Origin: Torpedo marmorata
Taxonomy: Eukaryota
Direction of reading: 5' to 3'
DNA: 64,000 nucleotides
NCBI GenBank assembly: GCA_977017645.1
Contig: OZ360236.1
Location: 48,980,001 to 49,044,000, forward strand
A model generated the notes under the pieces. The model was not told the DNA's origin. It made no database searches and was given only the letters and a program-made list of their open reading frames with translations. Of this stretch, positions 1 to 59,814 are shown piece by piece. Made by a program: the position numbers and the translations under genes. Position 1 is the stretch's first letter. Every line of letters starts with the position of its first letter.

Positions 1-789
1 GTGTATCCTTTACAAAGGTAGGGACAGCACAAGAACTTTGTAAGAAAGATGAGTTATAATTGTTTATATTGAGATTGATTTGTCATGAAATCATTTCAAA
101 CCAGAATAGGTTCTTGGAATTCCTATTGGTAATGATTAAACAACTGTTGCTACATTTAGTCTATATGGATGATGTGAAAAATATTTTTTATGAAAATGTA
201 CATCTAATTTGAATTTAAGGATATTTATATTTGGATTCAACTAAATTGCTTCAATGTTCATCCAAGGTAGTTGCGTAACTTTTGAGTTTCAAACCTAGGT
301 TGATTTTCAACTATTGTTTGGTTTTTAAACTACCGGTACTTGGAATACAGTCCCAAGAAAATTGTTTAATTAAAATGTATATTTGTTCATTTTATCAATC
401 ATTTTATCAATCAATTTTCTAACTTTGCTTATCTATAAAATAAGTAGCGATTTTTACTTTGAGCAAATTTTAAATTGCACAATCGTACAAAGCACAATCG
501 TACAAAGCAGTGTATCAGATATGAGAGGGTTGTGGAACTGGATTATCAGTTATCAATAACTATTGAAAATAGTTTAAAGGGGTGCTTCTGTTCAACATTT
601 TAGCTAATAGCCAAGTAAAATATTGTTTCATAATATTTTTTGCAATGAATGTCTGACCTTGGCCTTATCAGTGACTAGGGTGAGGCTAAATGTATACTTG
701 AGGAACAACACATCATATTCTTCCTGGAGTCTTAAAACCTCATGGTATGAACACAAGCTTTCCAATTTTAAGTTGCCCACCCCCCCCCC

Positions 790-5042: not shown

Positions 5043-5622
5043 AACCACAGAGGCAGCAGACACCAACCTTGATTGGCAGTGGAGTTTTCCATGCTGTAAA
5101 CTCAGCAGTTTTCTTGTCAGACCAAAATACCTCTGTGCATAAAATGTTTAATTGAAATTGGCTAACTTTTGTATATTTATAAGATTTGAACTGGGATCTC
5201 TGGTCTTGGCTTAACTTCTCCTTTGGATCATGTACAGCATTTGGGACATATTTTTAACGATCTACATACACTATCACACACTCAATAACAAATAATAGGG
5301 TGACTGTTGCTTTCCCATTCATTTCTAGTCTGTCACTTTGTGGCTGTTCTTTATTTCTTATTGCTGGTGTAAATGTAATTAAAGACATTATAAATCTAGC
5401 ATTTAATTTTGGCTTACCTCAGCAGCCCTCACATTTTTGTCTACGACCAAACAGGACAAGGAGCTATATCATAGGAACACAATTATTCCCAATTGGAAGC
5501 ATTGAGTTGGGAATTTATTGCTATTTATCCATGATTTAGTCAAAGTTCTGCAGTTTCCTACATGATACTTTAGTATAAGCCCTATTAATGTGAGGTCTTC
5601 CATCCTGGTTCAGGGAATTGAT

Positions 5623-7179
5623 CAAAGACCCGACCAGTCACCCTCTACCACCACCCTCCTCCGCCTGGCAGAACTTGTCCTCACTCTCAATAACTTCTCC
5701 TTTAACTCATCCCACTTCCTCCAAATCAAAGGACTAGCCATGGGCATAGGTGCCAGCTACGCCTGCCTGTTTGTGGGCTTTGTGGAGCAATCCATGCTAC
5801 AAGCCCACACAGTCAAGACCCCTCATCTCTTCCTCCGTTATATCGACGACAACATCGGGGCTGCCTCATGCACCCACGATGAGCTTGTCAACTTCATCCA
5901 CTTCGCATCCAACTTCCACCCCGATCTCAAACTCACCTGGTCCATCTCCGATAACACTCTCCCGTTCCTGGATCTCTGTCTCCATCTCAGGAGACAAGCT
6001 TTCCACCGACATTTACAACAAACCCTCCAACTCCCACAACTATCTGGACTACACTTCCTCACACCCTGTCCCCTGCAAGGATTCCATCCCCTTCTCTCAA
6101 TTTCTCCGTCTCTGCCGCATCTGTTCCCAAGATGAGGTCTTCCAGTCCAGATCTTCTGAAATGTCTGCCTTCTTCCACAAACATGGCTTCCCCTCCACCA
6201 CCATCAACTCAGCCCTCACCCGCATCTCCTCCATTTCCCGCTCATCTGCCCTGGCCCCCTCTGCCCCCAGACGCAACAAACATAGAATCCCCCTCATCCT
6301 CACCTACCACCCCACCAGCCTCCGCATCCAACACATTATCCGCCAGAAATTCCGGCACTTACTACAGGATCCCACCACCAGACACATTTTTCCTTCTCCT
6401 CCCCTCTCGGCCTTCCGTAGGGACAGCTCCCTCCGCGATTCCCTCATGCACTCATCCCTCCCCACCCATCGCACCCCCGGCACCTTCCCCTGTGCCCGCA
6501 GGAGGTGCAACACCTGCGCCCACACCATCGCCCTCACCACAGTCTGGGGCCCCAAACAGGCCTTTCAAGTGAAACTGCACTTCACTTGTACATCCAGAGA
6601 ACTTATTTACTGCATCCGGTGCTCCCTTTGTGGCTTTCTCTACATCGGAGAGACCGGCTGTAGATTGGGAGATCGCTTTGCTGAGCACCTCCTCTCCGTC
6701 TGCAACAACAGTGACCTCCCAGTAGCCAGCCATTTCAATTCCAAGTCACACTCCCACACTCACATGTCTGTCCATGGCCTTATGTACTATCCCACCCAGA
6801 CTACCCGCAAATTGGAGGAACAACATCTCATTTTCCGTCTGGGCACTCTCCAGCCAGACGGCATTAACATTGACTTTTCTGCTTTCCACTAAACCTGCTT
6901 GTCTTTTCCTTCCCCTCCCCCCTCACCTGTCCTTCCTGTTTTTTTCCCACCCACCCAGCCATCCCCCCTCCCCCTTTTTGCTGCTGTCCCCTCCCTCTTC
7001 TCCACCTATCATCGCCTGCCTTTGCTTCCCCCCCTCACTCTTTTGTTCGGACGCCTGCCGGCATTTTCTCATACTTTGATGAAGGGCTCAAGCCCGAAAC
7101 GTCGGTTATGTATTTCTACCTTTGCTACATAAAATACACTGTTTGACCTGCTGAGTTTCTCCAGCATTTGTGTTTTTTT
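5623..7179 (+). mobile_element. 5'-truncated Neptune/Penelope copy (frameshifted RT C-terminal part + GIY-YIG)
   Basis: Same family as 19021-22497, with YIDD and LIYCIRCSLCGFLYIGETG motifs. TSD AATTGAT at 5616-5622 and 7180-7186. Confidence 0.92.
7070..7110 (+). ncRNA. Minimal type I hammerhead ribozyme motif (U3 variant)
   Basis: catact-TTGATGA-a-gggc(tcaa)gccc-GAAAC-GTC-ggttatg: core, 4-bp stem II, short palindromic stem III and a bulged stem I. Confidence 0.7.
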
Positions 7180-11003: not shown

Positions 11004-13583
11004 TCACTCCCTCTTGGAGAGTTTGTTAGTGTAGAAACATGTTAACGACATTTCTCCCAGGAACGCAACCCACCGAGTGCTTCCCGGTCCCCGAGCAACT
11101 ACTTCCCCTTTTCTGGGCGGACCTTGTGGCTGCTGCACCCATACCCACCGGACTCCTCAGGATCCTGAAGGTCAACCTCATCTACCTTTTGCTGTGCCGA
11201 TGTGGCCAAATGTCTAGAAAGCGGGGATCCCCCTGTGTAATGGGGCGTGAGTTAAGATGGTCCACTGCTTCTTGCAGCACGCTGAGCCACCCCTTGAGAG
11301 TGTTGTCGGGTGTCAGCGTGCACAGCTTTTGCTGGAGGAGACCGTTCATCCTTTCAATTAGACCTGATGCTTGTGGGTGGTAGGGAATGTGATAGGAGCC
11401 AGGAGATACCAGCCTCTGTCGCCCAGTTTTGTAAAATGTGAGCCCTGATTGGACTGTACCTCCCATGGTGCTCCAGAAATGGAGGAGAGATATTTCAGTC
11501 CCTGTATGGTGTTGTCCTGGTCGGCCCGCTCGCAGGGCACTAACACCAGAGTAGGTATCCACCATAGTCAGTTTAAAGGCCTTTTTCTTTTGGCGTGGGA
11601 GAGGGCCAACATAGTGTACTTGGCCCGCTCCCGTGCCACGCTGAATGTGCCCCAGTGTACCCGTAGCCAGCCCCGTGGTTTAACCTGCTGGCATGTGGGG
11701 CAATTGTCTACCCCAGGTGACCGCTCTTCCTGTGGGCCCATGTTTCCAGGGTACCGGAATCTACATCATTGGAGCAGATGGAGGCTGTGAAGACTTGCGC
11801 TGCACGGTCCACGGCAGCATTGTAAATGGCCTCCGCTGTGGCCCTGTTGGAGTGGGCATCCACATAGTTGACCATGAGTGCCCTCTGCCCAGCCTGCTCC
11901 CAGATGTACCTGCAGTGTTGCTGACCCCACAGTGGGCGATTGTGGATCATCCACCCCGTGTTGTGCCAATGAGGCATCCAAACCACCATCCCGTTCGTCA
12001 CTGCCCATGAGTCCGTACAGATACAGAGCGGACACGTTGATTTAATCGCGAGCGCAACCATCGACTGGAGCCGTCCATGAACCACGCTTGCTGCTGTTGT
12101 TCTTTGGTGAGGGAGTCAAATGGCTGACCCCAGGAAATGGGGGAGGGATTGACGGTGGGGACTTCGGGAAGGGGATCGTGACTCTCAGGGAGGGACATGA
12201 TTTTCTCGTGCAGCCTGCTGACTTCTTCTAGCCCTGCCTCTGCCCTGTCGGCAATATACCACTGCCACTTAACAATAGAGGAACGCTGCACACGTCCCTC
12301 TTTGTGGGTGGCATCGGAGGATTTAATCCACTGCATAATGGGCAGGTGAGGTCAGAGTATAATGGTGCTCCGTGGTGAGGAGAGCCAAATAGCATGCCAG
12401 GAGCTGGCTTTCGAAGGGGGTGTAGTGATAGGTGGGTTCGGAGAGAGTCTTTGTCCAGAATCCGAGTCGAACTCTGCGACCATTAATTTTCTGCCAGAGG
12501 CTCCACTCGGCTGTTGTGGTGGTGGCTGAGACCTGGAGTTCAAAGGGGACTCCGTCTGGTCTGTCGGGAGGCTAGCGGCAGTGCCTGCTCCACGGCTTGT
12601 TTTGCCATCTCGAATGCTAGCTGCTGCTCAGGGCCCCAGTGAAATGTGGTCTTCTTCCTGGAGACGACATATAGCGGGTGCAGCAGCATGATAAGATGGG
12701 GGATGTGCTGCCGCCAGTAGCCTAAAAGGCCGATGAAACTCTGTTTCAGCCTTATTGGTGGGCACTGCTGTGTTTAATATTTTATTTCATGTCGCCTCTG
12801 GGATATCCCTCTGGCCTGAGTGCCACTGGATTCCCAGGAAGAGGACCGTCTGGCTGGGACCCTGTATTTTCTCCCGATTGATCGCCCTGCCACATGCACA
12901 GAACGCAGAGATGAGGGAGTCCAGTGCCTGCACCACTGTCTCCTCCATGGGGCCCTGGATCAGAATGTCATCGATGTAATAACTTGCATCGATGTCGGGG
13001 GGGGGTGGGGAATATATTTTATGTCGCGGGCTATTAACCCGTGGCAGACAGTGGGACTATGGAGATATCCCTGGGGTAGGCGACAAAAGATGTATTGCAT
13101 GCTATCCCGTGAAGGCAAATTGGTCCTGGAGTCTGAACTTAAGGGGATGGAGAAGAACGCATTGGCAAGGTCCACCATAGCATACCAGGGTGTGATATCC
13201 TTGACCAACGTGACCACATCGGGAACGGCTGCAGCAAGGGGGTGTGGGTGAATTTATTTAATTTGCGGTAATCCATCGTCATGCGCTACGTGCCGTTTTT
13301 GTAGATGGGCCAGACTAGCCTTTTGTTGGGGGACACGGCGGGTCTGATCACCCCCTCACTGAGGAGGGCATCAATCGCTTCCGCAATCTCCTCGTTGCCT
13401 CCTGGCACCCGATACTGGTGGGTGCAGACTACCTTGGAGGGGCGGGGATGACCAGGGGAGTCCATTTGGCCACCCCGACAACAATGGTTGCCGGGCGACC
13501 CCAAATATGAATTTTCCCTTGTTACACAGTGACTGCCCCTTGAGCACATTCATTCCAAGAATGCATTCGGGGGAGGCTGCTAC
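11004..13583 (-). pseudogene. pol: ERV pro-pol (C-terminal protease, RT, RNase H, integrase), disrupted; the rest of the protease is at 23192-23290
   Basis: ECILGMNVL, YAMVDLANAFFSIPL, YYIDDILI, WFMDGSS, TDSWAVTNG, SGLIERMNG and the integrase C-terminus WVWVQQPQGPPRKGEVVARGPGSTRWV, with the stop at 11004. Confidence 0.88.
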
Positions 13584-13703: not shown

Positions 13704-16700
13704 CTCTTCCCCCCCCACAAATTAAATGCTTTGTGAAAAATATATTTATGTGTGCAGTATTTATAATAAACTGCGATAACTATGTGCGTGTGTAGTATTT
13801 AGGCGTAATACGTGGTGCCTCTAGACTAATGGTGATTACAATTACAATGTAACGTAAGTATGAAATGATAAAATGTTAAGTCACTGAACATAGTCTTTCA
13901 GTCGTTCTGGTGGACGTTTTTCCCGTTTTGATCGTCTCAGAGAGGTCGACTCTGTCGGGATATTTTGCAGACTCTTCGCCTTTTGGGGTAGTACCTCAGT
14001 TGGTGGCAAGGACTGTGAACTTGATCTTTGGCGAACCCCACTCGGCTGTTGTATAGGACTGGGTTGTTGAAGAGGACGTAATGTTGGGCTGCTCGGTTGA
14101 GGGCTACTTGGTTGAGAAGGGGTCTCCCTTCTCACGGATATTTCTGGAGCCCAGGGAATCTCACCTGGAAGCTCATCGGGATCTTGAGCCGAGGGCGTGG
14201 CCATAGGATCATCTACTGCTCTCATCTGGTCGGTGTCGTTTCCATATTTTAGTTCCCACCAGTATAGAATAAGAACAGGGACTTAGTTTTTTAAGAATAA
14301 CCCCTCTTATCCATGACTCTTTGGTGTCTCGGTAATCCCGTACCAGTACTCGCTCTCCCACTTCTAGAGATCTGGTAGGATTACTTGGAGAAGTGGATTA
14401 CTCTATGCGAAGGCCGATGTTCGGGTGTACTGTGGAAAGTCTTGTTCTTAAGTTACGTCTAAACATTAATTCAGCCGGTGTTCTTTTGGTTGTAGAGTGG
14501 GGCGTGTTTCTATATCCTAATAGGAAATCTGCGATTTTGTGATTCCATGATGCGTTTAGGAGTTTTTTAGTTTTCATGGCTTTTTTGAAAGTTTGCACAA
14601 AACGTTCTGCTTCTCCATTAGTGCTGGGGTGGTAGGGTGCTGATAAGACATGTCGTATACTGTTATTGCGTAGGAATACTTTAACAGCATCCGATACGAT
14701 CTGAGGACCATTATCGGAAACCAGTTCAATAGGCAATCCATATAACGCAAATATACTTCGTAGTCTTTCAATTGTCTGGTCTGTTGTTTTTTCATGTGGG
14801 ATACCACTGGCCATTTAGAGTGTGCATCGACAACAATGAGGAAGTTTTCTCCCATAAATAGACCAGCGAAATCAATGTGAATTCTGTACCATGGTTGCAA
14901 TGGCCATTTCCATGGATTAGCTTCGGCTCGAGGAGCTTTGGGTTGCATATCTTGACAAATGCCACATCATCTTACTGTTTGTTCAATATCAATGCCTATT
15001 GAGGGCCACCAGACATGCATACGTGCCAATGCCTTCATTCGAACCATCCCGGGGTGGTTGTTGTGGAGTTCGGATAACATTGCCGTCTGCCATTTTGTAG
15101 GGATGATTGTTCTGGTCCCCCACAATAAACAACCTTCTTCAATCGATATCTCCTGCCATCGTGTATAATAAGGTTTTAGCTCTTCAGAGATAGCTTCGTC
15201 CTCGGGCCATCCATTTAATGTGAAGTATAGGACTTTTGATAGTGTAGCTTCTTTTCGTACTTCTTGGCTGATCGTATGTGCTGTAATTGGTAAGCGGTGA
15301 AGTTGTTCTTGATTAATAGCTGTAGCCTCTGCTGTCCATTTAATTATCTCGTCTTTTTGTTCAGTTTCTGGTAGTGGTAAGTGAGATAGAGCATCAGCAT
15401 GGTTGTTTTTTGTTGCTGGTTTATGTTTCAAATCGTAATTATATGCGGCGAGCATCATGGCCCACCTTTGAATTCTTGTTGCAGCGAGCACTGGTATCCC
15501 CTTTTTAGGGCTTAGAATCAAACTTAGTGGTTTGTTGTCTGTTACTAAGGTAAATTTTCTACCATAAGTATTGGTGGAATTGTTTGACACCAAATATTAT
15601 GGCAAGCCCTTCTTTTTCAGTTGTGCATAATTACGTTCACAAGTCGTCAAAGACCGGGAGGTATAAGCCACCGGTTGTTCTCCTTTTTCCGTTATCTGTG
15701 ACAACACCGCTCCTAATCCTACTGGTGAAGCATCCACCACAAGAGTCACTTCTTTTTATGGGTCGTAGTGGACGAGAACATTGTTGCATGACGTTAATAG
15801 TTCTTTCAAGCGATCCACCACGTGACTTGTCTCTTCATTCCAGCACCATTTTTGGTCTTTTCTCAACAATTGGTTCAGCGGGCTACATAGCGTTGACATA
15901 TTTGGGATATGCTTTCTATAATGGTTAATCAAACCCAGGAACGACTGCAATTCGGCGCTATTTGTGGGATAGGGTGCTCTGCGGACAGCTTCGGTACCCG
16001 CGGTATCCATTCGGACTCCTTCACTGTTAATTGTAAAGCCAAAATATGTTAAGGAAGGTACCATAAATACACACTTATCCATCTGCGCCTAGACGTTTGC
16101 TTGTTGCAATCGAGTTAGGACTTTTTCTAGGTTGGATAGGTGTTCAGAGTCGTCCCGGCCTGTAATTATAATGTCATCGAGGTAACATCCTACATTAATG
16201 CCATGTAATTGTCCATGGTCGCTTGAAATATTGCCGGGGCTGCTGATATCCCATATGGCATTTGGGTATAGGTGAATAGCCCTAAGTGAGTATTGATTGC
16301 CACATATTTCGTTGAGTCTTCATCCAGTTCTATTTGTTGGTATGCTTGTGATAAGTCCAGCTTTGTAAATTTCTTTCCTCCGTTCAGGGCTTGGAATAAT
16401 TCTTCTGCTTTAGGCATAGGGTGTTCCGGTATTTGCAAAGCTTGGTTAATGGTGACTTTGTAGTCACCACAAATTCGGATTTCTCCGTTGGCTTTGCGCA
16501 CTGGCACGATGGGTGCTGCCCAATCGCTGTATTGTATTCTTTCCAGTATTCCCTCTTTTTCCAATCTGTGAAGTTCTGATTCAATTTTTTCTTTTATTGC
16601 AGATGGTACTGTTCTGGGTTTAAAGAACTTTGGTTCTACCTCTGACTTCGGGTGTAATTTTGCCTGGACTCCTTGGATTTTTCCCAGGCTTTTTTCGAAA

Positions 16701-18834
16701 ATCGTCTGGTATTTCTTGAGAACTGCCTCGTTGTTGCTTGGCCTTATCTTCCAGGCCTAAGTTCATTATGGATCCAATTTCCATCCAGTCTAGTTGAATG
16801 TGTGACAGCCAGTTCCTTCCGAACAGCGCTGGCTCCTTGGTGTCAACGATGTAGAAGGGTAATCTTTTCGATGTTTGATCTTTATATTTCACGTTTACGT
16901 TGCATTTTCCAAACTCCTTGACTTTCTCCCCCGTAACTGTTTTTAACACCGTGTCGGCCTCTTTAATGGTGAGGTGGGGTAGCAGTTGTCTTTTTAAAAA
17001 TAGTGGCATTAACGACACTGCTGCCCGTGTCCAACTCCATTCGAAGATGTTCGTTATTAATTTTCACTTCGACGTAAAATTCCGATTTCTATTTATTTAT
17101 TTTTATCGTTCAATCCGCGAACATACATGACTTGCACTGTCGTGTCTTCTGAGTCGTTTGTTTCAGTGCTGGTATTTCATCCTTCTCTTCCACCACCCTT
17201 ACTCCGGGTGAACGCTTTTCATATTTCAGTCCTTTCTTTTTACCTTTGTTTCTCGGACACTTGGTTCTGATGTGCCCCTGTTTATCACATAGATGGCATC
17301 TAGATCTTTTAAAGTAACAATTATCAGGACTGTGATTGCGTTTCCCGCAGCGAAAGCATTCTTGGCGGGAAAATCTGCCCACCACTAGTGGATCGCCTTG
17401 GCCAATGTCCAAGTTATTATCGGCCATTTCGAAACCCAAGGCTGTATCATGCTGAATCAAGTGTTACTTGTTTTTGACTTAGTAATCGTTGACTGGCACT
17501 GCGGTCTGCTAAACCCATTACTAATAATGGGTTTAATTTAATGGGAATAATTATACTCTTAAGGCTTCGGTTAAGAATTCACCAAACTCAGTGTTGTGAA
17601 AGTTTACGAAATTCAGCCAAAAATTCGCTTACCGATTCGCCTGTTCTCTGTTTTCTGAAGTAAAATCTTTGTCTTCTGCCATTACAGGTGGTTTGGGACT
17701 TAGATGTGTCCCTATTATACCCCACAACTCTGCATAACTTTTTGTTCCTGGTCTTTCAGGTTCTATTAAAGATTTTATCAGTTGAAATGTCTTACTTCCC
17801 ATTTGGCTTAGAAATAGCGATCGTTTTCGGTTGAAAGGCGGAGTCTCAGTAATATAGGCAAGACAGTGATGATCAAATCTCTCTATATCTCTATATCCAC
17901 TCCAGATCTTCTGAAATGTCTGCCTTTTTCCACAAACGTGGCTTCCCCTCCACCACCATCAACTCAGCCCTCACCCGCATCTCCTCCAGTTCCCGCTCAT
18001 CTGCCCTGGCCCCCTCTGCCCCCAGACACAACAAACATAGAATACCCCTCATCCTCACCTACCACCCCACCAGCCTCCGCATCCAACACATTATCCGTCG
18101 GAATTTCCGGCACTTGCTGCAGGATCCCACCACCAGACACATTTTTCCTTCTCCTCCCCTCTCGGCCTTCCGTAGGGACCGCTCCCTCCGTGATTCACTC
18201 GTGCACTCGTCCCTCCCCACCCATCGCACCCCCGGAACCTTCCCCTGTGCCCGCAGGAGGTGCAACACCTGCGCCCACACGTCCCCCCTCACCACGGTCC
18301 AGGGCCCCAAACAGGCCTTCCAAGTGAAGCAACACTTCACTTGTACATCCAGAGGACTTATTTACTGCATCCGGTGCTCCCTTTGTGGCTTTCTATACAT
18401 TGGAGAGACCGGTCGTAGATTGGGAGATCGCTTCGCTCAGCACCTCCGCTCGGTTCGCAACAACAGCGACCTCCCAGTGGCCAACCATTTCAATTCTGTG
18501 TCACACTCCCACACTCACATGTCTGTCCATGGCCTCATGTACTATCCCACCAAGACTACCCGCAAACTGGAGGAACAACATCTCATATTCCGTCTCGGCA
18601 CTCTCCAGCCAGATGGAATTAACATTGACTTTTCTGCTTTCCACTAAACCTGCTTGTTGTTCCCTTCCCCTCCCCCCTCACCTGTCCTTCCTGTGTTTCT
18701 CCAGCTACCCAGCCATCCCTCCTCCCCCTCTTTGCCACTGTCCCCTCCCTCCTGTCTCCACCTATTATCTTCTGCCTTTCCCACCCACCCTTCCCCCCCT
18801 CACTCCTTTGTTCGGACGTCTGCCGGCATTTTCT

Positions 18835-18875
18835 CATACTTTGAAGAAGGGCTCAAGCCTGAAACGTCAGTTATG
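18835..18875 (+). ncRNA. Hammerhead ribozyme motif in upstream pseudo-LTR
   Basis: catact-TTGAAGA-a-gggc(tcaa)gcct-GAAAC-GTC^agttatg, with the predicted cut after 18868. Confidence 0.68.
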
Positions 18876-19020
18876 TATTTCTACCTTTGCTACATAAAAG
18901 ACACTGTTTGACCTGCTGAGTTCTCCAGCATTTGTGTTTTTTACTACATTATTACGGTGTCTACAGATTTTCGTGTTTACTTCTTAATTCTACAACAACT
19001 CTGTGAAAACTCTTTGAGGG

Positions 19021-22000
19021 ATGCCTACCCTGAAGAAGTTCGCCTTTGCTCTCCGAAGGGAGTCCCGTGGGATTCTCTCTCACTGCTCCCCATCTGCAAC
19101 CCCTGCTGCTCTCAAGCTCTACGACCATGTACTCACCCAGACTCGATTCCACAGCCACGTTACCTTCCTTGCTACTTGCCTCCGTCGTCATCTTGTGCCT
19201 CGTGGTTTCCAGCTTCGATTCCAGACCTCGCAGTTTGGCCCCCGCAAGGATGTCAGGTATCTCCACAGCATCGACTGCTGCTCTCTCCGCTTCTCCCAAA
19301 GACTCCTCCGCACCACCCTCACCTCGATGCGGAGATACCAGCGGCAACTCGCCCTCTCCCTGCCACAGCTCCGGACCTCGCTGGCCATGGCCTGCAGCGG
19401 ACCCCTCCTATACTACATCCGCCGCCGGATCCACGCGTTCAACCGCCGGCTCTACACCTACCTGGCGTCCATCAAGAACCGTAAGCTTGCCTCCCTTGAA
19501 ACTGCAGCCTCTGCGACCCTCCACGTGGATCCCCATCTCGGCCCCGGCCGCCTGACCTCCGGAACTCCCAACGCTGCGTCCGCCGACCCGACCCTGGACG
19601 CCGGCCGCCGACTTACCGGAGCTCCCAACGCGACGGCTGCCGACCCGACCCTGGACGCCCGCCACCGACTTATCGGAGCTCCCAACGCGACGGCTGCCGA
19701 CCCGACCCTGGACACCGGCCGCCGACTCACCGGAGCTCCCAACGACGCAGCTACCGACCCGACCCTGGACCCCGGCCCCCGACTTACCGGAGCTCCCAAC
19801 GCGACGGCCGCCTACTCCTACCCGCGCCCCGGGCGCCGACACTACGGTACTCCCGACGCTGCAGCCGCCCACCCCAGCCCGGACCCCGAGCCTCTACTCA
19901 CCAGAGTTCCCGATGCCTCCACTGCCGACTCCCGACACAGACTATTACCTGCTGGAGTCTCCCACGCTGACTGCCACTGGAGTCCTCATCCTGCAACAAT
20001 ATCCCACTTACCTATCCCCCACACTACTCCTTCCCTCTCCCCCTGCACCTCTCCCTACTCCACCCCCATCTCCCCCTCTCTGCCCCACTCTCCTCCCCAA
20101 CCCTCAGACCTCATCCCTTCCCGTCCCTCCATCCCCCTCCTCTCTCTGGCTACCCTCCCTACCCCCCTCTCCCACCCTCCTACCTCCCCTACCCCCCACC
20201 TCCCCCCTCCGACTCCCTCCAACCTCCCCCACCCTCTACCTCCCCCCTCTGACCCCCCCAACCCTCCCCCTCCCCCCAACACCCTCCACGACACCGATCC
20301 CCACTCTAACCCCTGCTTGGTGTTTACTATCCCCTCCGACCTTCCCCTCTCTGAGACGGAGCGCTCCGTCCTCAGTAGAGGCCTCACCTTCGTCCCCCTC
20401 CGCCCACACCTCAACGAGTTCCGCGCACGCCATGATGCCGAACTCTTCTTCCGTCGCCTCCGCCTCCGTGCTCACTTCCATGACCGTGATTCTCCACCCC
20501 CCACCCAAGACCCTTTCTCCCGTTTCAAGCCTTCTTCCTCTTCCTGGACACCCCGTCCTGGCCAGCTGCCTGCTCTGGACCTTTTTATATCCAACTGCCG
20601 CCGAGACATCAACCGTCTCAACTTCACCACCCCCCTCTCGTATTCCAACCTCACCTCCTCAGAACGCTCTGCCCTCCACTCTCTCCGCAACAATCCCAAC
20701 CTCACCATCAAACCCGCAGACAAGGGCGGTGCGGTTGTGGTCTGGCGCACTGACCTCTACCTTGCCGAGGTCAGTCGACAACTCTCAGACACCTCCTCCT
20801 ACCGACCCCTCCCACAGGACCCCACCACAGCACATCAAGCCACTGTCTCCAACACCATCTCCGACCTCATCACCTACGGTCACCTCCCCTCCACGGCCAC
20901 CAACCTCATTCTCCCCCATCCCCGCACTGCCCGTTTCTACCTTCTACCCAAAATACACAAACCCAACCATCCGGGCAGACCCATTGTTTCTGCCTGCTCC
21001 TGCCCCACCGAACTAGTTTCATCTTACCTTGACTCCATCTTTTCTCCCCTGGTCCAATCCCTCCCCACCTACATCCGCGACACCTCACATGCCCTCCATC
21101 TCCTCAATGACTTCAGATTCCCTGAACCGGACCGCATCATCTTCACCATGGATGTCCAATCCCTTTATACCTCCATCCCCCACACAGAAGGTCTGAAAGC
21201 ACTTCGCTTCTTCCTGGACCAAAGACCCGACCAGTCACCCTCTACCACCACCCTCCTCCGCCTGGCAGAACTTGTCCTTACTCTCAATAACTTCTCCTTC
21301 AACTCATCCCACTTCCTCCAAATCAAAGGAGTAGCCATGGGTACCCGCATGGGTCCCAGCTACGCCTGCCTGTTTGTGGGCTTTGTGGAGCAATCCATGC
21401 TGCAAGCCTACACAGGCAAGACCCCTCATCTCTTCCTCCGGTATATCGACGACTACATCGGGGCTGCCTCATGCACCCACGATGAGCTTGTCAACTTCAT
21501 CCACTTCGCATCCAACTTTCACCATGATCTCAAACTCACCTGGTCCATCTCCGATAACACTCTCCCCTTCCTGGATCTCTCTGTCTCCATCTCGGGAGAC
21601 AAGCTTTCCACCGACATTTACTACAAACCCTCCAACTCCCACAACTATCTGGACTACACATCCTCACACCCTGTCCCCTGCAAGGACTCCATCCCCTTCT
21701 CTCAATTTCTCCGCCTCCGCCGCATCTGTTCCCAAGATGAGGTGTTCCACTCCAGATCTTCTGAAATGTCTGCCTTTTTCCACAAACGTGGCTTCCCCTC
21801 CACCACCATCAACTCAGCCCTCACCCGCATCTCCTCCATTTCCCGCTCATCTGCCCTGGCCCCCTCTGCCCCCAGACACAACAAACATAGAATACCCCTC
21901 ATCCTCACCTACCACCCCACCAGCCTCCGCATCCAACACATTATCCGTCGGAATTTCCGGCACTTGCTGCAGGATCCCACCACCAGACACATTTTTCCTT

Positions 22001-22497
22001 CTCCTCCCCTCTCGGCCTTCCGTAGGGACCGCTCCCTCCGTGATTCACTCGTGCACTCGTCCCTCCCCACCCATCGCACCCCCGGAACCTTCCCCTGTGC
22101 CCGCAGGAGGTGCAACACCTGCGCCCACACGTCCCCCCTCACCACGGTCCAGGGCCCCAAACAGGCCTTCCAAGTGAAGCAACACTTCACTTGTACATCC
22201 AGAGGACTTATTTACTGCATCCGGTGCTCCCTTTGTGGCTTTCTATACATTGGAGAGACCGGTCGTAGATTGGGAGATCGCTTCGCTCAGCACCTCCGCT
22301 CGGTTCGCAACAACAGCGACCTCCCAGTGGCCAACCATTTCAATTCTGTGTCACACTCCCACACTCACATGTCTGTCCATGGCCTCATGTACTATCCCAC
22401 CAAGACTACCCGCAAACTGGAGGAACAACATCTCATATTCCGTCTCGGCACTCTCCAGCCAGATGGAATTAACATTGACTTTTCTGCTTTCCACTAA
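19021..22497 (+). CDS. Intact Penelope-like RT + GIY-YIG endonuclease polyprotein (1158 aa)
   Basis: Uninterrupted ORF with KPADKGG, YLLPKIHK..GRPIVS, MDVQSLYTSI, GVAMGT, RYIDD, a Cys-rich linker (CARRRCNTC..FTC, typical of Neptune) and LIYCIRCSLCGFLYIGETGRRL. Confidence 0.95.
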   Translation: MPTLKKFAFALRRESRGILSHCSPSATPAALKLYDHVLTQTRFHSHVTFLATCLRRHLVPRGFQLRFQTSQFGPRKDVRYLHSIDCCSLRFSQRLLRTTLTSMRRYQRQLALSLPQLRTSLAMACSGPLLYYIRRRIHAFNRRLYTYLASIKNRKLASLETAASATLHVDPHLGPGRLTSGTPNAASADPTLDAGRRLTGAPNATAADPTLDARHRLIGAPNATAADPTLDTGRRLTGAPNDAATDPTLDPGPRLTGAPNATAAYSYPRPGRRHYGTPDAAAAHPSPDPEPLLTRVPDASTADSRHRLLPAGVSHADCHWSPHPATISHLPIPHTTPSLSPCTSPYSTPISPSLPHSPPQPSDLIPSRPSIPLLSLATLPTPLSHPPTSPTPHLPPPTPSNLPHPLPPPSDPPNPPPPPNTLHDTDPHSNPCLVFTIPSDLPLSETERSVLSRGLTFVPLRPHLNEFRARHDAELFFRRLRLRAHFHDRDSPPPTQDPFSRFKPSSSSWTPRPGQLPALDLFISNCRRDINRLNFTTPLSYSNLTSSERSALHSLRNNPNLTIKPADKGGAVVVWRTDLYLAEVSRQLSDTSSYRPLPQDPTTAHQATVSNTISDLITYGHLPSTATNLILPHPRTARFYLLPKIHKPNHPGRPIVSACSCPTELVSSYLDSIFSPLVQSLPTYIRDTSHALHLLNDFRFPEPDRIIFTMDVQSLYTSIPHTEGLKALRFFLDQRPDQSPSTTTLLRLAELVLTLNNFSFNSSHFLQIKGVAMGTRMGPSYACLFVGFVEQSMLQAYTGKTPHLFLRYIDDYIGAASCTHDELVNFIHFASNFHHDLKLTWSISDNTLPFLDLSVSISGDKLSTDIYYKPSNSHNYLDYTSSHPVPCKDSIPFSQFLRLRRICSQDEVFHSRSSEMSAFFHKRGFPSTTINSALTRISSISRSSALAPSAPRHNKHRIPLILTYHPTSLRIQHIIRRNFRHLLQDPTTRHIFPSPPLSAFRRDRSLRDSLVHSSLPTHRTPGTFPCARRRCNTCAHTSPLTTVQGPKQAFQVKQHFTCTSRGLIYCIRCSLCGFLYIGETGRRLGDRFAQHLRSVRNNSDLPVANHFNSVSHSHTHMSVHGLMYYPTKTTRKLEEQHLIFRLGTLQPDGINIDFSAFH
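19561..19930 (+). repeat. Coding minisatellite, 57-bp/19-aa unit, about 6.5 copies
   Basis: GAPNATAADPTLDAGRRLT-like units starting at 19561, 19618, 19675 and onward. Confidence 0.9.
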
Positions 22498-22683
22498 ACC
22501 TGCTTGTTGTTCCCTTCCCCTCCCCCCTCACCTGTCCTTCCTGTGTTTCTCCAGCTACCCAGCCATCCCTCCTCCCCCTCTTTGCCACTGTCCCCTCCCT
22601 CCTGTCTCCACCTATTATCTTCTGCCTTTCCCACCCACCCTTCCCCCCTCACTCCTTTGTTCGGACGTCTGCCGGCATTTTCT

Positions 22684-22724
22684 CATACTTTGAAGAAGGG
22701 CTCAAGCCTGAAACGTCAGTTATG
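22684..22724 (+). ncRNA. Hammerhead ribozyme motif in downstream pseudo-LTR
   Basis: Identical to 18835-18875, with the predicted cut after 22717. Confidence 0.68.
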
Positions 22725-23006
22725 TATTTCTACCTTTGCTACATAAAAGACACTGTTTGACCTGCTGAGTTCTCCAGCATTTGTGTTTTTTACTACATTA
22801 TTACGGTGTCTACAGATTTTCGTGTTTACTTCTTAAATCTCTCTATATAGTCATACCAGTTTTCTTCGGAGTCCACGCACTTTCCAAATGGTGCTTCAGC
22901 CATTCTGAAGTTTTTCTTCTTCTTTGTTCTTGAGCTTGTAAGGTCCACAGCGTTTCCTTTTTAAATCTTCACTCCAATATTTGGAGCATAGAGGAGGTCC
23001 GTTCAA

Positions 23007-23294: not shown

Positions 23295-24520
23295 TATATA
23301 TTCTAGCCCTTCCAGAAGGGCAATGGCTTCCTGGACGGTGTTGCTGGTCCCATCAAGGGCAAGACCACCATTCTGAGGTCAGGGCGGACGGTGGTAACTA
23401 AGAGCCCTGCCAAGGTGGAGGTTACCCTGGCGTCCTCGGGGAGGTTGTGCCTGGGAGCCCCACCGTAGAGGCTAGTAATAAGGGCCCATTCCCTAATGAC
23501 CCTCGTGCCCTCACTGACTGTGTGCCACTGCAGTTGACATTTCAGGTCGCACTCCAAAAGAGTGGGGAACCTGGTGCGCACTGCAGTCTCTACCTGATCC
23601 CACAAAGTGGGCCCCTCATCGATCCCTTCTGGTGGCACCCGCAGGGAGTTGTTGATCGTCTGCTGCGCGGACAGACTGCCCAGAGTGCTGGTCTCTAGGT
23701 GGGAGAGGCGAATATGGGGGGCCCCCCTCCTCAGCCGGAGTAGCCTTGCGGCTAAATGCTCACCTGACTGCTGGCGGTATCTGTCCACAAGCCCGGCCAA
23801 TTCCTTGGCGGAGTATTCCCTGGTCTCTACGATCTCGTACCGGCCCCTTGCCCGTCCACTCGGACCCTCTCCATTCTCGGCAATTTCCCCATTGTGGAAG
23901 GCCAACAGGGGTCCTCGTGGCAGGTCTGGGACTGCGTGGTTACCGGTCGGGATTGCAAGGTCTCCGGGGTGGGGCGCGCGTAATCGGACTCGGCTTCCTC
24001 AAAATCATCATTGTCCAGCCACATATCCCCATCTCCCGACCACGCATCACTCCCCCGCGCATGATAGTTCTGATTTTTTAAATTTTTTACAGGATTGACC
24101 TGCCAGTCGAATCAGTGGGCTTTGACAAGCTGGCAGGCAGCTTCAGTGTACCTAGCCTCCAAGCTGCTGATACGTGCCCTGGCAGTGTCCAGTGCCTCCT
24201 GTAGGGACCCGCGATGGAGCTTTAGTGATTCAATCTGTTGATCTTTCTGGGTGCACTGATTACTTAAATCGGATGTGGTACCCCACTGGCACTTAAGTAG
24301 AGATATCAGTAACCATAGGGCCCCTCCACGACTCCCCCTGGCCTCGGGAAACCCTGATTCCTCCAGGAGGGAGACCACGTGGTGCCCTATCTTCTCTCCG
24401 TGTGGGTCCAGCCTATCGATCCAGTCGGCCGGCATGGCGTGGTTTGCCAGTCACGTCGCCAAATGGCTGAAGCCCTGACAGTCGTTGGTCCACTAGGAGA
24501 TTTTATATTCCGATCCTGGG
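23295..24520 (-). pseudogene. gag: ERV gag (ERV-L/Fv1-type), frameshifted and C-terminally deleted
   Basis: Coiled-coil N-terminus, a GDGDMWLD motif (ERV-L W.GD.W type) and YSAKEL..RYRQQSGEHLAARLLRL, which resembles the ERV-L capsid start. The start coordinate is approximate. Confidence 0.75.
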
Positions 24521-25386: not shown

Positions 25387-25545
25387 GTCATGCTTATGTA
25401 ACTGTTAAGTATTGTATAGATCTTGCTGTGTGCGCTGCTTAATTTAGTGAGGAGTCACAGATGAAATGCCAGTGAACATCTTGACTTCTGACCTCATGAT
25501 GAAAGTGCTATCACTGAAATGGTTCAAAATAGTTGGGTCTATAAT

Positions 25546-28466
25546 GTTACGAACTAACTTCAATCAACTCACTCAGGTACAGCTGCGGCACCGCGGGAGT
25601 TTTAAACGGCCAGAGAACGGGCCGTTCAAACTTCGCGGGAGCCGCAGACAGCAGGCACTCAACACAATTACAAATCGCGCAGGATTTAAAGGGACAGCGC
25701 ACGGTCCGTTTAAACACTGCGGGACCTACCGGCAGTGGACCCACGGGCCAGGTAAAGAAGTCCCGACCACGTAGACGCGGATCCAAGGGCCAGGTAAAGA
25801 AGTCCCGACCACGGGGACGCAGAGGGGGGCTACAAGTCAAACTGAGAAGGGGGGACCTGAAGCTTCCGCTCCCTACCATCCTCCTGGCCAACGTTCAATC
25901 CTTGGAGAACAAATTTGATGAACTCCAAGCCAGAATTCAATATCAGGGAGTCATCAGGGAGTGCTGCGTGATGTGCTTCACAGAAACGTGGCTAAACAAG
26001 GACATTCCGGACACGGCGCTACAGCCCAAGGGCTACACCCTCCACCGCGCTGACCGAACACCGGCGTCTGGAAAAACCAGGGGAGGCGGCGTGTGTGTCA
26101 TCATCAATTCATCGTGGTGCACAGACGTGACGGTCATGTCCCAGTCCTGCTCCCCCGACCTAGAACATCTGGCGATCAAGTGTCGCCCATTCTATCTGCC
26201 GAGGGAGTTCACCGCCATCATCCTGGTCGCAGTGTACATTCCGCCCCAGGCTAACGTCAGGCTGGCACTGAAGGGACTGAGCACTGTGATAAACAGCCAT
26301 GAGACAGCACATCCTGATGCCTTCCCGATCATTGTGGGAGACTTCAATCAGGCCAACCTGAAGAAGTCACTGACAAACTACCACCAACACATCACTTGCG
26401 AGACCAGGGGAACCAACACACTCGACCACTGCTACACCACCGTGAAGAACGCATACCGAGCCATACCACGACCGCACTTCGGCAAGTCTGATCACCTGGC
26501 TGTACTTCTACTCCCGGCGTACAAGCAGAGACTAAAGTCCACAGCAACAGTGGAGAGGACAGCGAAAGTGTGGTCAAGGGAGGCGGAGGAGCGTCTGCAG
26601 GACTGCTTTGACTCGGTGGACTGGAACATATTCAAGCACTCAGCCATAGACATAAATGAATATGCAACAGGTGTCACCGACTTCATCAAGACCTGCGTGG
26701 ATGAGTGTGTGCCCACGCGCAAATACCGGGTGTTCCCCAACCAGAAGCCCTGGATGAATCAAAGAATTCGCAACTTGCTGAGGACGAGAACATGGGCGTT
26801 TAAAGACGGGGACCGGGATCTTTACAAAAAGTCCAGGCACGACCTGCGGAAGGCCATCTCTGAAGGAAAGTGGCAATTCCGAAGGAAGCTAGAGACAGAG
26901 ACAGATACACGCCAGCTATGGCAGGGAGTGCAGGCCATTACAGCCTACAAAACGAGGGCGAACACTATAGACGGCTGTGATGCTTCACTACCCGATGAGC
27001 TGAACACCTTCTATGCCCGCTTTGAGAAGAAGAACAAAACGGTGCCTAATAGAATCCCTGAGAGGGCAGAGGACCCTGTGATATCTGTCTCTGAGGGCGA
27101 CGTCAGAACATCATTCAAGAGGGTGAACCCTCGCAAGGCGTCAGGCCCTGACGGCGTACCTGGCAGGGTATTGAAAATCTGCGCCAACCAACTAGCCGGA
27201 GTGTTCACGGACATTTTCAACCTCTCATTGCGGCAGTCAGAGGTTCCCACCTGCTTCAAAAGGGCATCAATCATCCCGGTGCCCAAGAAGAGTAGTGTGA
27301 GCTGCCTCAACGACTATCGCCCAGTAGCACTAACTTCTACGGTGATGAAATGCTTTGAGAGGCTGGTCATGGCCAGAATTAACACATACCTAAGCAAAGA
27401 TCTGGACCCACTGCAATTCGCCTATCGTCACAATCGCTCCACAGCAGATGCAATATCGCTGGCTCTCCACTCAGCTCTGGATCACCTCGAAAACAGCAAT
27501 TCATACATACGGCTGCTCTTCATAGACTACAGCTCGGCCTTCAATACCATTATTCCCTCAGTGCTGGTCAAGAAGCTACAAACTCTAGGCCTCTGTACCC
27601 CACTCTGCAACTGGATCCTTGACTTTCTCATCGGAAGACCACAGTCAGTACGAATTGGAAACAACGTCTCCTCCTCACTGATTATCAACACAGGCGCACC
27701 CCAAGGATGCGTGCTTAGTCCACTGCTCTACTCGCTATACACTCATGACTGTGCGGCCAGGCACAATTCCAATGCCATATACAAGTTTGCCGATGACACC
27801 ACAGTTGTCGGCAGAATCACAAACGGCAATGAGGAAGCGTACAGGAGGGAGATAGATCAGCTCATTGAATGGTGTAATGACAACAACCTCGAGCTCAACG
27901 TCAGTAAAACCAAGGAGATGATTGTGGACTTCAGGAGGAAGTCAGGGGAACACAACCCAGTCCTCATCGAGGGCTCAGTCGTGGAGAGGGTCAAGAACTT
28001 CAAATTCCTGGGTGTCAACATCTCCGAGGATCTGTCCTGGAGCATCCACGTGGATGCAATCACAAAGAAGGCTCGTCAGCGGCTATACTTTGTGAGGCGA
28101 TTGCGGAGATTCGGTATGTCGCCAAAGACTCTCGTGAACTTCTACAGGTGTACCGTGGAGAGCATTCTAGCTGGTTGCATCACTGCCTGGTATGGTGGTG
28201 CCAACTCCCAGGACAAGAGCAAACTCCAGAAGGTTGTTACCTCGGCCTGTGACATCACGGGCACCAAACTTCACTCCATCGAGGACATCTACATGAGGCG
28301 ATGTCTTAATAAAGCAGCCTCTATCCTCAAGGACCCCCACCACCCAGGCCATGCCCTCTTCACGCTGCTTCCATCGGGGAAAAGGTACAGGAGCCTAAAG
28401 ACGAGCACTCAACGGCACAAGGTCAGCTTCTTCCCTGCTGCCATCAGATTCCTGAACAATCAATGA
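25546..28466 (+). CDS. Rex1/Babar LINE endonuclease + RT ORF, open but probably 5'-truncated
   Basis: The frame is open from the TAA at ~25543: [63 protein letters not shown]. The element ends with AATAAA and an (ATTCTG)n tail at ~28616. Confidence 0.9.
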
Positions 28467-44144: not shown

Positions 44145-44568
44145 AGGTCAAGGAGGAAATGTTCGTCACCAAGAGCAAGAGGGTCAGTCAATGCAAGTTT
44201 CTTCACCAAGTTCCTTACCAAGAGAGAAGAAGATCTTAGTCCAGATTGAAGAAGAACAAGATGATTTGAACATTGGATCAGTTAGATGAAGTTATGATTA
44301 ATAATGTTTTGTAAATCTGTTGGGGGGAGGTGGACTTTTTGTCTCTTCTTCCTAGTCATACACCACGTAGTGGCGAGAGCCACTTCTCGAGCAATGGAGG
44401 GGGGTAATACTGGGCTAATTGTACCAGTATTTTTTCTATTGGGGTTTTTCTTTTTCTTTTTTCTTTTCTTATTTTTCTCTATTTTATCTAAGGGGATGCC
44501 AAATAGTTTACAATTTTGGAGGAAAAAGCTAGTGGATTTGATTGAAAGAGATTTGATAGAATTTAATT

Positions 44569-56985: not shown

Positions 56986-56989
56986 TAGA

Positions 56990-58490: not shown

Positions 58491-58966
58491 AAAGGAGATG
58501 CAAATGAGGGCTGAGTTAATGGAAGATTGGGTAACTGTTTTCCAGAATACCTCTGTTCAATATGCAAAGGTGACTCTGAATTTCCCCTGCCTATCAGTTG
58601 GTTTCTCCATCCCCACTCCTATCAACTATGACTGGCCTCCTAGAATGTTGCAAAAAACAACAATTCAATCAGTGGGGCAGCAATTCATCTCTGACTGAAG
58701 AGGAGTTGCTTGTAGAGTACTGAAGAAGGTAGGGGAGGGGTGCGGGAAGAAGTTGTCTCTGAAAAAATAAAGTTGCATTACCTGCATTTCAATCTAGTCA
58801 CTGATCAAAAACTTTTTCCACAGAGGGAGGGAGGAAAATCACAATTATTTTAGTGGTGTTCATTATTAAATGTTTCCATAATTTTATTTGAAATTAAAGG
58901 TTTATAAACTTGTAAGTTGTCTATTTAATGTGTTGTATGTATAACAAGATATCTCCTATTTTGCAG

Positions 58967-59814
58967 AGGATGCAGACTACAGTGCTTTTGGTACAGATAC
59001 CATAACACGGAAAAAGAACGTCTTGTCAAACGTACTGCGTCCTGATGTTAATCGCAAGAAACCCTCAATTGCAATCAGCTTACCACGTGATTTCCGTCCA
59101 GTGTCTTCAATCATTGATGTGGACATTCTTCCAGAAACCCATCGAAGAGTGCGGCTATACAAGCATGGGTCTGATAAACCGCTTGGTTTCTATATCCGTG
59201 ATGGCTCAAGTGTTCGCGTAACACCTCACGGGCTTGAAAAAGTACCTGGCATTTTCATTTCTAGATTGGTTCAAGGGGGATTGGCAGAAAGCACTGGTCT
59301 GTTAGCTGTAAATGATGAAGTTCTTGAGGTGAATGGGATTGAGGTGTCAGGAAAAAGTCTTGATCAGGTGACTGATATGATGATAGCAAATAGCCATAAT
59401 CTCATCATTACTGTGAAGCCAGCAAATCAAAGAAATAATATTGTGAGAATCAGTCGGACTTCTGGTAGTTCAGGTCAGTCCACTGACAGTGGAACTAGCC
59501 ATCTTGCTTACATAGCATCTCCACATGTTATTCAAAATTTCCATTCTGAAGAATTAGACAGTGATGAAGAAACAGACCTGGTCATTGAGGGCAGTGGTGA
59601 GCCACAGCATATTCCAGTGGCAACTTCTACCAGTGCCAGCATAGCATCTTTAATAAAAACTGACCATAATCATGCCTCAACTTCAAACGGTTCTGTGGCT
59701 GGAATCAAAGAAAATGTGCATATACAATCAGCTCCCGTGAAAGCGGATCTTCTCGAAAAAGAAAATGTGAATGGGCAAACCATTGAGGAGGATGGCACTG
59801 TTATTACACTCTAG
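58967..59814 (+). CDS. PARD6B: Partitioning defective 6 homolog beta, final coding exon (semi-CRIB + PDZ + C-terminal PDZ-binding motif)
   Basis: The acceptor ctcctattttgcag ends at 58966. The phase-1 exon reads (E)[94 protein letters not shown]. The [10 protein letters not shown] start, the [11 protein letters not shown] segment and the C-terminal ITL match PARD6B rather than PARD6A or PARD6G. Confidence 0.93.

Follow-up and report, generated by a model that had tools for sequence, protein, structure and literature searches.

An intact Penelope-like element with a hammerhead motif in each repeat, in a PARD6B intron of Torpedo marmorata, and how its partial tandem may have formed

Results

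The element and its surroundings

The window is a stretch of 64,000 nt from Torpedo marmorata (contig OZ360236.1). The + strand carries an exon 2 of Par6 type 40.8 kb ahead of the window and exon 3 from near 58,966; with GT and AG borders, the PARD6B intron between them is about 99.5 kb long. Inside this intron is a Penelope copy in the sense orientation, as the preliminary description had proposed. The older element that it entered (Table 1) is a Ty3/Gypsy-type remnant with a gag containing two CCHC knuckles, a protease-like region, RT, RNase H and an integrase Zn finger. Since the Penelope copy is sense and intronic, host read-through would join both of its hammerheads on one RNA, as had also been proposed; read-through would thus transcribe the copy, yet nothing sets the locus apart. 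The four family motifs within the intron are all sense, which is too few to judge selection against sense motifs but gives no sign of purging.

The insertion is a 1.28-unit partial tandem, and one 14-bp target-site duplication (TSD) encloses the complete unit including both repeats. The repeats (1089 and 1088 bp) are 99.8% identical; the alignment gives one substitution (G at 17989, T at 21839) and one indel, an extra C at about 18793 in the upstream repeat, in line with the two or so differences first noticed. The cut-to-cut unit is 3849 nt long and starts with the 152-nt leader. Signed positions are counted from the predicted hammerhead cut site, with +1 at 18869 in the upstream repeat. Because the 3′ end of the element lies 117 nt past the second predicted cut site, a linear cut-to-cut RNA was not the template of the window copy. 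A simple pattern search for strong splice-like sites matched none in the element.

Table 1. Features of the Penelope-like insertion and its surroundings (window positions).
Feature	Position	Strand	Remarks
Older, broken Ty3/Gypsy-type element	14967..22900	-	Penelope copy inserted in its gag-like frame
Left TSD, AAATCTCTCTATAT	17876..17889	+	14 bp
8-nt repeat of left TSD end	about 17890-17896		Precedes element start
Upstream pseudo-LTR	17897..18985	+	0.28 unit, made up of ORF 3′ end, 3′ UTR, hammerhead and the leader's first 117 nt
Minimal type I hammerhead motif 1, U3-G8 core	18835..18875	+	Predicted cut after 18868
Leader, 152 nt	18869..19020	+	Contains 12-codon uORF at 18873 and both family-wide cDNA start points
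cDNA start points in leader	about +75 = 18943; about +115 = 18983
1158-aa ORF	19021 (ATG)..22497 (stop)	+	N-terminal domain, linker, DKG, RT, CX4CXXC linker, GIY-YIG endonuclease
Jump re-entry zone, +230 to +300	19098..19168	+	Single occurrence in window insertion
Downstream pseudo-LTR	21747..22834	+	Terminates at +117 start point
Minimal type I hammerhead motif 2, identical to motif 1	22684..22724	+	Predicted cut after 22717
Right TSD	22835..22848	+	Border blurred, about 1-3 nt microhomology
Par6 exon 3 region	58966..59814	+	Best PDB match Par6 beta

The encoded protein and classification

The 1158-aa ORF is uninterrupted, as first described. Pfam RVT_1 matched aa 646-828 (E 3e-6) and GIY-YIG aa 1062-1099 (E 5e-4), each just below its curated cut-off, and the ORF contains DKG at 565, RT motifs at 710, 770 and 807, and LIY..YIG at 1063. 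One ORF with RT followed by GIY-YIG is the arrangement of EN+ Penelope-like elements (PLEs), with both Pfam scores under gathering. Two Cys between GIY and YIG (CIRCSLC, 1066) and H..H at 1091-1106 give the CCHH signature, and CARRRCNTC at aa 1026, between RT and EN, has the CX2-5CXXC form of the Neptune/Nematis linker. The partial tandem with pseudo-LTRs, the variable TSD and the optional 30-40-bp tail agree with the EN+ PLE layout. In addition, ahead of DKG, the ORF carries a 57-bp repeat and a Pro-rich linker. The label Penelope (Neptune) given at first therefore stands as Penelope-like of the Zn-linker (Neptune/Nematis) type; that the element is Neptune proper is our assumption from the CX2-5CXXC linker and the host range.

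Within a very large family of this type, the element is a young and unremarkable member. Like the Neptune/Nematis EN+ PLEs in the cited sections of Craig et al. 2021 (PMC8557442), the family has RT plus GIY-YIG at the C terminus in a single ORF with a Zn-finger-like linker, pseudo-LTRs from a partial tandem with a hammerhead within the repeat, inverted 5′-truncated partners and an optional 30-40-bp tail. Unlike the elements in those sections, it combines very high copy number, youth and a fixed U3-G8 core with a long Pro-rich linker with 57-bp repeats.

Hammerhead motifs with a U3-G8 core

A hammerhead motif was found in each repeat, 3849 nt apart, with predicted cuts where the preliminary description had placed them. 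The core reads UUGAAGA at 18841 and 22690, with C17 at 18868 and 22717, and the fold has an extra A, a 4-bp stem II, GAAA, a palindromic ACGU and a 6-bp stem I with one bulge. An Rfam scan of 17-24 kb returned no hammerhead model at E<=1; the call comes from a manual fold and the published minimal consensus. Stems I and II, the extra base after A9, GAAA, a palindromic minimal helix III and the NUH site of PLE minimal type I hammerheads are all present, whereas in place of the C3-G8 Watson-Crick core pair (or a compensated U3-A8) both copies have U3-G8.

Counting genomic copies, which had been recommended as a check, gave 61,695 exact matches to a 34-nt motif pattern with any base at position 3, of which 92 have C3, against 0 for the reversed control. 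All 100 family matches examined among those listed have U3-G8. U3 is thus the family-wide norm, and damage to the window copy is ruled out as its cause: the core sequence behind the earlier caveat was confirmed, whereas the flaw that it implied was not, and the same UUGAAGA core is listed for one Saccoglossus PLE (Cervera and de la Peña 2014, PMC4209133, in the part cited). We found no paper on the kinetics of U3-G8 hammerheads; supplements may bear on the point.

The closing pair of stem I is U-A here, and T>C at 18840 and A>G at 18869 are both listed, unphased, in contigs of four other organisms (four contig sets at 80% likeness, from variant tables only, so at least those listed; no row for 18841 is among them). 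The closing pair therefore appears to covary. Because core and stems are conserved as well, the fold is probably under selection. The two-copy fold does not favour a catalytic dimer. Like the PLE minimal hammerheads in the cited part of PMC4209133, the motif is of type I with an extra nucleotide between 9 and 10.1 and a palindromic 15.2-16.2, and it occurs in both repeats and genome-wide as single truncated motifs. In contrast, its stem II is short (4 bp) where theirs is enlarged, and a non-consensus core is the rule over more than 60,000 motif copies.

Ends of family copies

Twenty-five long insertions share a common layout with differing 5′ ends; a TSD of at least 9 nt was found in 11 of 18, and the ORF is open in 23 of the 25 best-matching. 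The 3′ ends of all 30 sampled motif-bearing loci fall at +74..80 (13 loci) or +110..122 (17 loci), two classes separated by about 38 nt. The leader-ATG junction is present in 1,595 copies in all; of the first 100 listed, 90 were mapped. Among these, 70 continue across the cut site without a seam, 19 end downstream of it and 1 ends within -3..+5. The stop rate is flat from +128 to -1500, lying at 1.6-2.3 per kb in ten bins; the cut-site bin, with 2 events, gives 2.8 per kb.

All three pre-cut bases were mismatched in 223 copies, and 9 of 30 inspected were true flank ends, which gives about 67 (95% range 33-110). The same probe gave 88 copies at +16 (7/30 true, about 21) and 508 at -14 (11/30 true, about 186), where the pattern is looser and adjoins an A-run; the denominator of 92,817 is inflated by a minisatellite. 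The genome-wide end counts do not peak at the cut. For re-start junctions lying behind the +75 site there were 24 matches between about -26 and +1, and 3 of these fall at the cut. A few fossils start at the cut, namely three ~75-nt units at C2:245.85 Mb, the locus L106 (oligo-A then +1) and the locus L328. Four 5′ ends at -5..-7, considered as cleavage products, were taken instead as microhomology at the A-run. Taken together, the family insertion ends show no sign of cut templates. The earlier proposal of self-excision yielding a circular unit holds for the unit itself (3849 nt, whole ORF, 152-nt leader); the cut shows no excess of ends or jumps, and the arrangement is not locus-specific.

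Jump junctions and short arrays

In 300 short loci we found 19 distinct jump junctions, after 6 of 25 rows were dropped as reference-edge artefacts. They leave from -751..+86, none of them from the cut site, and re-enter at +139..+420, 14 of the 19 within +230 to +300. About 14 of 90 leader-bearing copies have such a junction. At three loci (L251, L281 and L283) the inverted arm stops 0-3 nt from the other arm's jump point; this coincidence suggests a physical RNA 5′ end, and hence a linear template with end-to-end jumping. At L271 the re-entry point carries five untemplated A. At C5, L291 and L306 both arms traverse the same junction.

The C5 locus is an array with 11 junctions between identical 363-nt hammerhead units inside one TSD; all 11 genome matches to this junction are at that one locus, and the assembly holds no single-junction donor. 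Splicing was rejected as its source, since the junction has a 2-nt TA microhomology and not GT-AG. The L199 locus is a 262-nt array without any hammerhead, in which the four compared units are identical, and so reiteration needs no ribozyme. This second array and the missing donor weaken the case for a hammerhead circle that the 363-nt array might make. We found no literature on end-to-end jumping in PLE tandems, although supplements may bear on the point; in the cited part of PMC3846280, template jumps are mentioned solely for linker inserts.

Multi-unit loci and shared variants

Insertions of 2.2-3.3 units occur inside a single TSD, and loci with open ORFs are among them. As proof of a rolling circle they are weakened by a crossover signature at C25 (variants T,T,C at unit 2013; C,C,A,A at 2995); the 3.3-unit locus shows an unequal-crossover pattern. 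Among variants private to one of 24 insertions (L184, with a nested older copy, was excluded from the 25), 14 of 63 are present in every repeat of their insertion. One such shared variant, tested genome-wide, had 117 matches and is not private, which weakens shared variants as proof of one template. No substitution is restricted to same-position repeats across insertions; the extra C upstream in both the window and C51 is the one positional match, but it was query-selected.

Discussion

We favour, as the probable history of the window copy, a one-event 1.28-unit insertion copied from uncut linear RNA with an internal start and jumps from the RNA 5′ end back to its 3′ part, the hammerheads seldom cutting. 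The observed basis is the layout, one TSD enclosing the full unit, the +75 and +115 starts, the seamless passage through the cut site and the scattered jump junctions. The protein would bind an RNA extending about 250-300 nt beyond the cut site into the ORF's start, and the +230 to +300 zone may be the common 3′ end of such protein-bound templates. Two RT sites would prime on the two nicked strands, and cDNA arriving at the RNA 5′ end would either stop or re-enter near the 3′ end; re-entry into an identical downstream repeat would leave no seam and would restore the pseudo-LTR. Some full-length copies may instead come from long read-through RNAs of loci with at least two units.

Several observations speak against this reading. 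Full-length tandems show no jump scar, and jumping is extrapolated to them from short copies. A circle or a long read-through RNA accounts no less well for the flat stop rate, which on our reading would require very efficient jumps. The shared junctions of C5, L291 and L306 are equally explained by a small covalent circle, fossils starting at the cut exist, and the hammerhead fold is probably under selection.

The strongest alternative, which we consider unlikely, is that in a minority of transcripts both hammerheads cut, probably aided by protein, ligation yields a 3849-nt circle and the enzyme goes round it more than once, so that full-length tandems come from rare circles and short copies from linear scraps. 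In 2014 Cervera and de la Peña (PMC4209133, in the part cited) put forward cleavage, ligation and more-than-unit reverse transcription as applying to all PLEs, and the idea of cutting and circularising is therefore already known, neither new nor special to the window locus. It keeps its share of probability because no scar would mark a full-length circle once ligated. It also accords with the seamless passage and with a stop rate that stays flat upstream of the first hammerhead. The start point and the downstream ORF segment occur together solely in the 5′ repeat of a 1.28-unit locus, so that some template re-use would be needed if the segment is required. The 363-nt array has its 11 junctions in one TSD at one locus alone, and, in the cited part of PMC11167929, the PAc hammerhead cuts only with protein. 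On the other hand, unligated intermediates should leave traces at the cut, where ends and jumps are not in excess; U3-G8 breaks the Watson-Crick core pair of the published consensus; and the motifs are 3849 nt apart, with a two-copy fold that disfavours a catalytic dimer. The shared variants and the unit number lend the circle weak support, because of the 117 matches and the unequal-crossover pattern.

Improbable, in our judgement, is linear read-through as the only route, with full-length tandems copied jump-free from donors of at least two complete units that were rebuilt by unequal crossing-over at the DNA level. Donor-like loci of 2.2-3.3 units with open ORFs exist, C25 shows the crossover signature, and a multi-copy mRNA was proposed by Frangieh 2024 (PMC11167929, in the part cited). 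However, jump junctions are common enough to indicate that the enzyme re-uses templates, and no substitution is confined to same-position repeats across insertions, the one positional match being the query-selected extra C. The near-identity of the repeats might suggest that they were duplicated by the assembly or by a later DNA event at the locus. This is very hard to credit, because one 14-bp TSD surrounds both repeats, the 3′ end lies at a family start point, the repeats differ at two places and the 25 long insertions have a like layout with different 5′ ends.

The favoured reading of uncut linear RNA resembles what is described in the cited part of Frangieh et al. 2024 (PMC11167929) for the PAc Poseidon element of Anolis. 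There too RT starts internally at two sites and both DNA strands are extended, RNA beyond the start site is needed, as we infer for the window family, no RNA ends lie at the cut site, and the hammerhead is dispensable for insertion in vitro; uncut RNA and dead-ribozyme mutants reproduced the two-start 'tail' signature in vitro. PAc belongs to another clade, and its start sites and cut lie within the ORF, as opposed to a 152-nt leader here; end-to-end jumps, which the window family appears to make, are not reported for PAc in that part of the paper.

More tentatively, and with somewhat less than even confidence, we suggest that Penelope pseudo-LTRs may be regenerated in general by a dimeric RT with two internal starts, a run to the 5′ end and 3′ re-entry on linear RNA, a pseudo rolling circle that would not require ribozyme cleavage. 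This process might also spawn retrozyme-like arrays, and the U3-G8 hammerhead, with more than 60,000 copies, might persist as an RNA element with attenuated activity or a structural role. The role of the PLE hammerhead is left as a question in the cited parts of PMC8557442 and PMC11167929, and no obvious mechanism was seen for pseudo-LTR regeneration (PMC2377424). Nothing about the locus is out of the ordinary; what makes the family useful is its great youth, its many open ORFs, a non-consensus core that is fixed and jump junctions that can be dated. It makes both the hammerhead role and pseudo-LTR regeneration directly testable, and the intact intronic copy is a ready donor for assays.

Non-LTR retrozymes consist of short non-coding tandem units with a hammerhead each. 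The window element, with a 3849-nt unit coding for RT and EN, differs from those in the cited parts of Cervera and de la Peña 2020 (PMC7229834) and Li, Clavereau and Pollet 2026 (bioRxiv 10.64898/2026.07.22.740005) in being autonomous and 3.8 kb long. Only the derived C5 array fits their layout. Its 363-nt units resemble a newborn retrozyme from a pseudo-LTR, set apart from the animal retrozymes in those sources by a single locus and a minimal U3 motif.

Anatomy, setting and class of the element

The coordinates assigned in the preliminary description to the repeats, the ORF and the hammerheads of the Penelope-like element were all upheld (see table). One substitution and one C within a C-run separate the two repeats. 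The ORF encodes 1158 aa with matches to RT and GIY-YIG, and each repeat carries one minimal type I hammerhead, consisting of a 6-bp stem I with a bulge, UUGAAGA, an extra A, a 4-bp stem II, GAAA and the palindromic ACGU. A 14-bp TSD surrounds the entire unit, whose insertion site is a gag-like frame belonging to an older, broken element of Ty3/Gypsy type on the opposite strand. Since Par6-type exon 2 (40.8 kb upstream of the window) and the last Par6-type exon (top PDB match, Par6 beta) lie on either side, both on the + strand, the element is indeed sense within the host (PARD6B) intron of ~99.5 kb. The protein has a CX4CXXC linker and a CCHH pattern, the motifs by which Craig et al. (PMC8557442) describe the Neptune/Nematis type. 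The ORF linker contains 57-bp (19-aa) tandem repeats, whose unit number differs between sister copies with ORFs of 1139 and 1158 aa. Two minus-strand frames in the window may derive from further elements of LTR or retrovirus-like type.

Features of the window
Feature	Coordinates	Strand	Remarks
Older 5′-truncated copy, same family	5620-7178	sense	92% identical; U3 hammerhead at 7076; 3′ end at +74
Integrase-like frame	11182-11679	-	weak rve_3 match
Penelope-like element	17897-22834	+	
Repeats (pseudo-LTRs)	17897-18985; 21747-22834	+	
C17 of the hammerheads	18868; 22717	+	
ORF	19021-22497	+	starts with ATG
57-bp tandem repeats	19480-19935		
231-aa frame	23303-23998	-	directly right of Gypsy-type element
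APE-RT LINE frame	25545-28466	+ (sense)	open, 973 aa; same intron
L1-like element	42987-48953	+ (sense)	broken; same intron
Fragment of distant Penelope family	56372-56989	antisense	67% identical to ORF 3′ end
Last Par6-type exon	near 58,966	+	

This 6.2-Gb genome contains 1,287 candidates for the repeat end, with ~100% identity in the 40 scored. Of the 25 long insertions that match best, 23 keep an open frame of 1139-1160 aa, and a TSD of at least 9 nt surrounds the whole tandem in 11 of 18 long insertions tested. The window element is genuine, young and intact, and belongs to a known class. Since 61,695 sites genome-wide match the 34-nt hammerhead motif pattern exactly, with U at core position 3 in 100/100 among the matches listed, and only 92 sites match when C3 is fixed, U3-G8 is the norm for the family; Cervera and de la Peña (PMC4209133) print an identical U3 core for a Saccoglossus PLE in their supplement. 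On contigs from four other organisms, 18840 T>C and 18869 A>G each occur often and 18841 has no variant among those listed, a pattern that, with the variants unphased, would fit a covarying stem I closing pair.

cDNA start points and the search for cut RNA

Counting from the first nucleotide after the predicted cut (+1), the 3′ ends of 30/30 sampled copies fall at +74 to +80 or +110 to +122. Both clusters mark internal RT start points, the pair from which, according to Frangieh et al. (PMC11167929), the PLE tail arises. The window copy ends at +117, and therefore its cDNA, begun past the second hammerhead, ran across both predicted cuts. A linear RNA reaching from cut to cut is impossible as the template of this insertion, which is compatible only with uncut RNA, with a circle closed by ligation or with a jump.

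Copying of cut RNAs should heap 5′ ends at +1. A probe forcing three mismatches before +1 matched 223 places, with true ends in 9 of the 30 read (an estimated ~67, or ~160 once probe-corrected), and the same design gave ~21 ends at +16 and ~186 at -14; the -14 probe is looser and adjoins an A-run, and the comparison speaks to the absence of a peak and not to an exact rate. Genome-wide, the mismatch probe revealed no 5′-end peak at the cut site. In a sample of 90 leader-ATG copies (1,595 junction matches in total), 70 pass the cut site, 1 stops there and 19 stop downstream; the stop rate in ten bins ranges from 1.6 to 2.3 per kb, and the bin around the cut, with two events, has a rate of 2.8 per kb. 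Re-starts behind the +75 point depart from about -26 to +1, with 3/24 at the cut. Individual loci do start at +1 (L241/L242 at C2:245.853 Mb, L106 and L328), and possibly reflect rare cleavage. At L241/L242, three successive ~75-nt units, each running from +1 to the +75 start point, lie within one TSD; among single loci, this one is the best candidate for a fossil of cut RNA.

Jumps and arrays

Of the 90 leader-bearing copies, ~14 fall short of full length; in these, the cDNA ran upstream from its start point and was then continued from a site downstream of that point, in the beginning of the ORF. The 300 short loci yield 19 different jump junctions (six reference-edge rows left out), with departures from -751 to +86 and re-entries from +139 to +420, 14 of them at +230 to +300; none of the 19 departs from the cut site. 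The inverted partner arms of L251, L281 and L283 end 0-3 nt from the departure point; given the background stop rate, each of these stops has a probability of ~1%. The match between arm stop and departure points to a single RNA, linear and with a physical 5′ end, that was read from two RT sites. At L271, five untemplated A mark the re-entry point, as would be seen at the 3′ end of a tailed RNA. At L075, L291 and L306 one and the same junction is crossed by both arms, a layout compatible with repeated jumping or with a small circle.

L075 (G000:C5:20310798-20314706) is one insertion (TSD TATACTTACTCTTG) whose two inverted arms are built of identical hammerhead units of 363 nt and end at start points +114 and +77. 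Its 11 identical junctions lie inside one TSD and are unique to the locus (11/11 matches), and the insertion looks like a newborn retrozyme-like array. At L199:1611-2960 (C2:106.28 Mb), a full-length insertion carries at its 5′ end at least six 262-nt repeats of the endonuclease-coding region; since this array contains no hammerhead, reiteration does not need the ribozyme. A 3.3-unit tandem with three open ORFs is found at L071/L072 (C25:62.08-62.09 Mb), and its variant pattern would fit enlargement by unequal crossing-over.

Copying models

We infer that templates commonly run 250-300 nt beyond the cut site; the Anolis element requires RNA beyond the start site, according to Frangieh et al. 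(PMC11167929). In a 1.28-unit copy, such a segment would follow the upstream start point only, so that to produce a full-length daughter the cDNA would have to jump to the downstream repeat, which is identical, or be copied from a circle; neither route would leave a scar. We consider it probable that the family's tandems arise from uncut RNA with jumps. End-to-end jumping as a route of pseudo-LTR regeneration was not found in the open-access literature searched, and the D. virilis Penelope paper (PMC2377424), which places the element's own promoter inside the pseudo-LTR, saw no obvious route to regenerate the repeat.

A ligated circle as the template is less likely, and its best argument is that stops upstream of the first hammerhead occur at a flat rate, which a long read-through RNA would explain as well. 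Sample-private variants are common to both repeats of an insertion in 14/63 cases; this fits a jump equally and is weak, as one variant tested has 117 matches genome-wide and the 3.3-unit locus was apparently enlarged by unequal crossover. The self-excising circle of the preliminary description is an already published hypothesis, compatible with the family's fossils but not favoured by them. Cervera and de la Peña 2014 (PMC4209133) already proposed cleavage, ligation and more-than-unit reverse transcription, restated in a 2019 review, and found minimal motifs weakly active, dimers included; Frangieh et al. describe one PLE hammerhead that is assisted by protein and was dispensable for insertion in vitro, and saw no RNA ends at that hammerhead's site. 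That linear multi-unit donors alone supplied the tandems is improbable, and an artefactual tandem is very improbable. The family is of value for testing what the hammerhead does and how the pseudo-LTR is regenerated.

The cut site is also spanned by a long minisatellite at L169-L180 (C1: ~0.70-0.74 Mb), with 27-28-nt units from about -5 to +23, and comparable 26-30-nt arrays occur at C11:71.43 Mb and C25:199.43 Mb.
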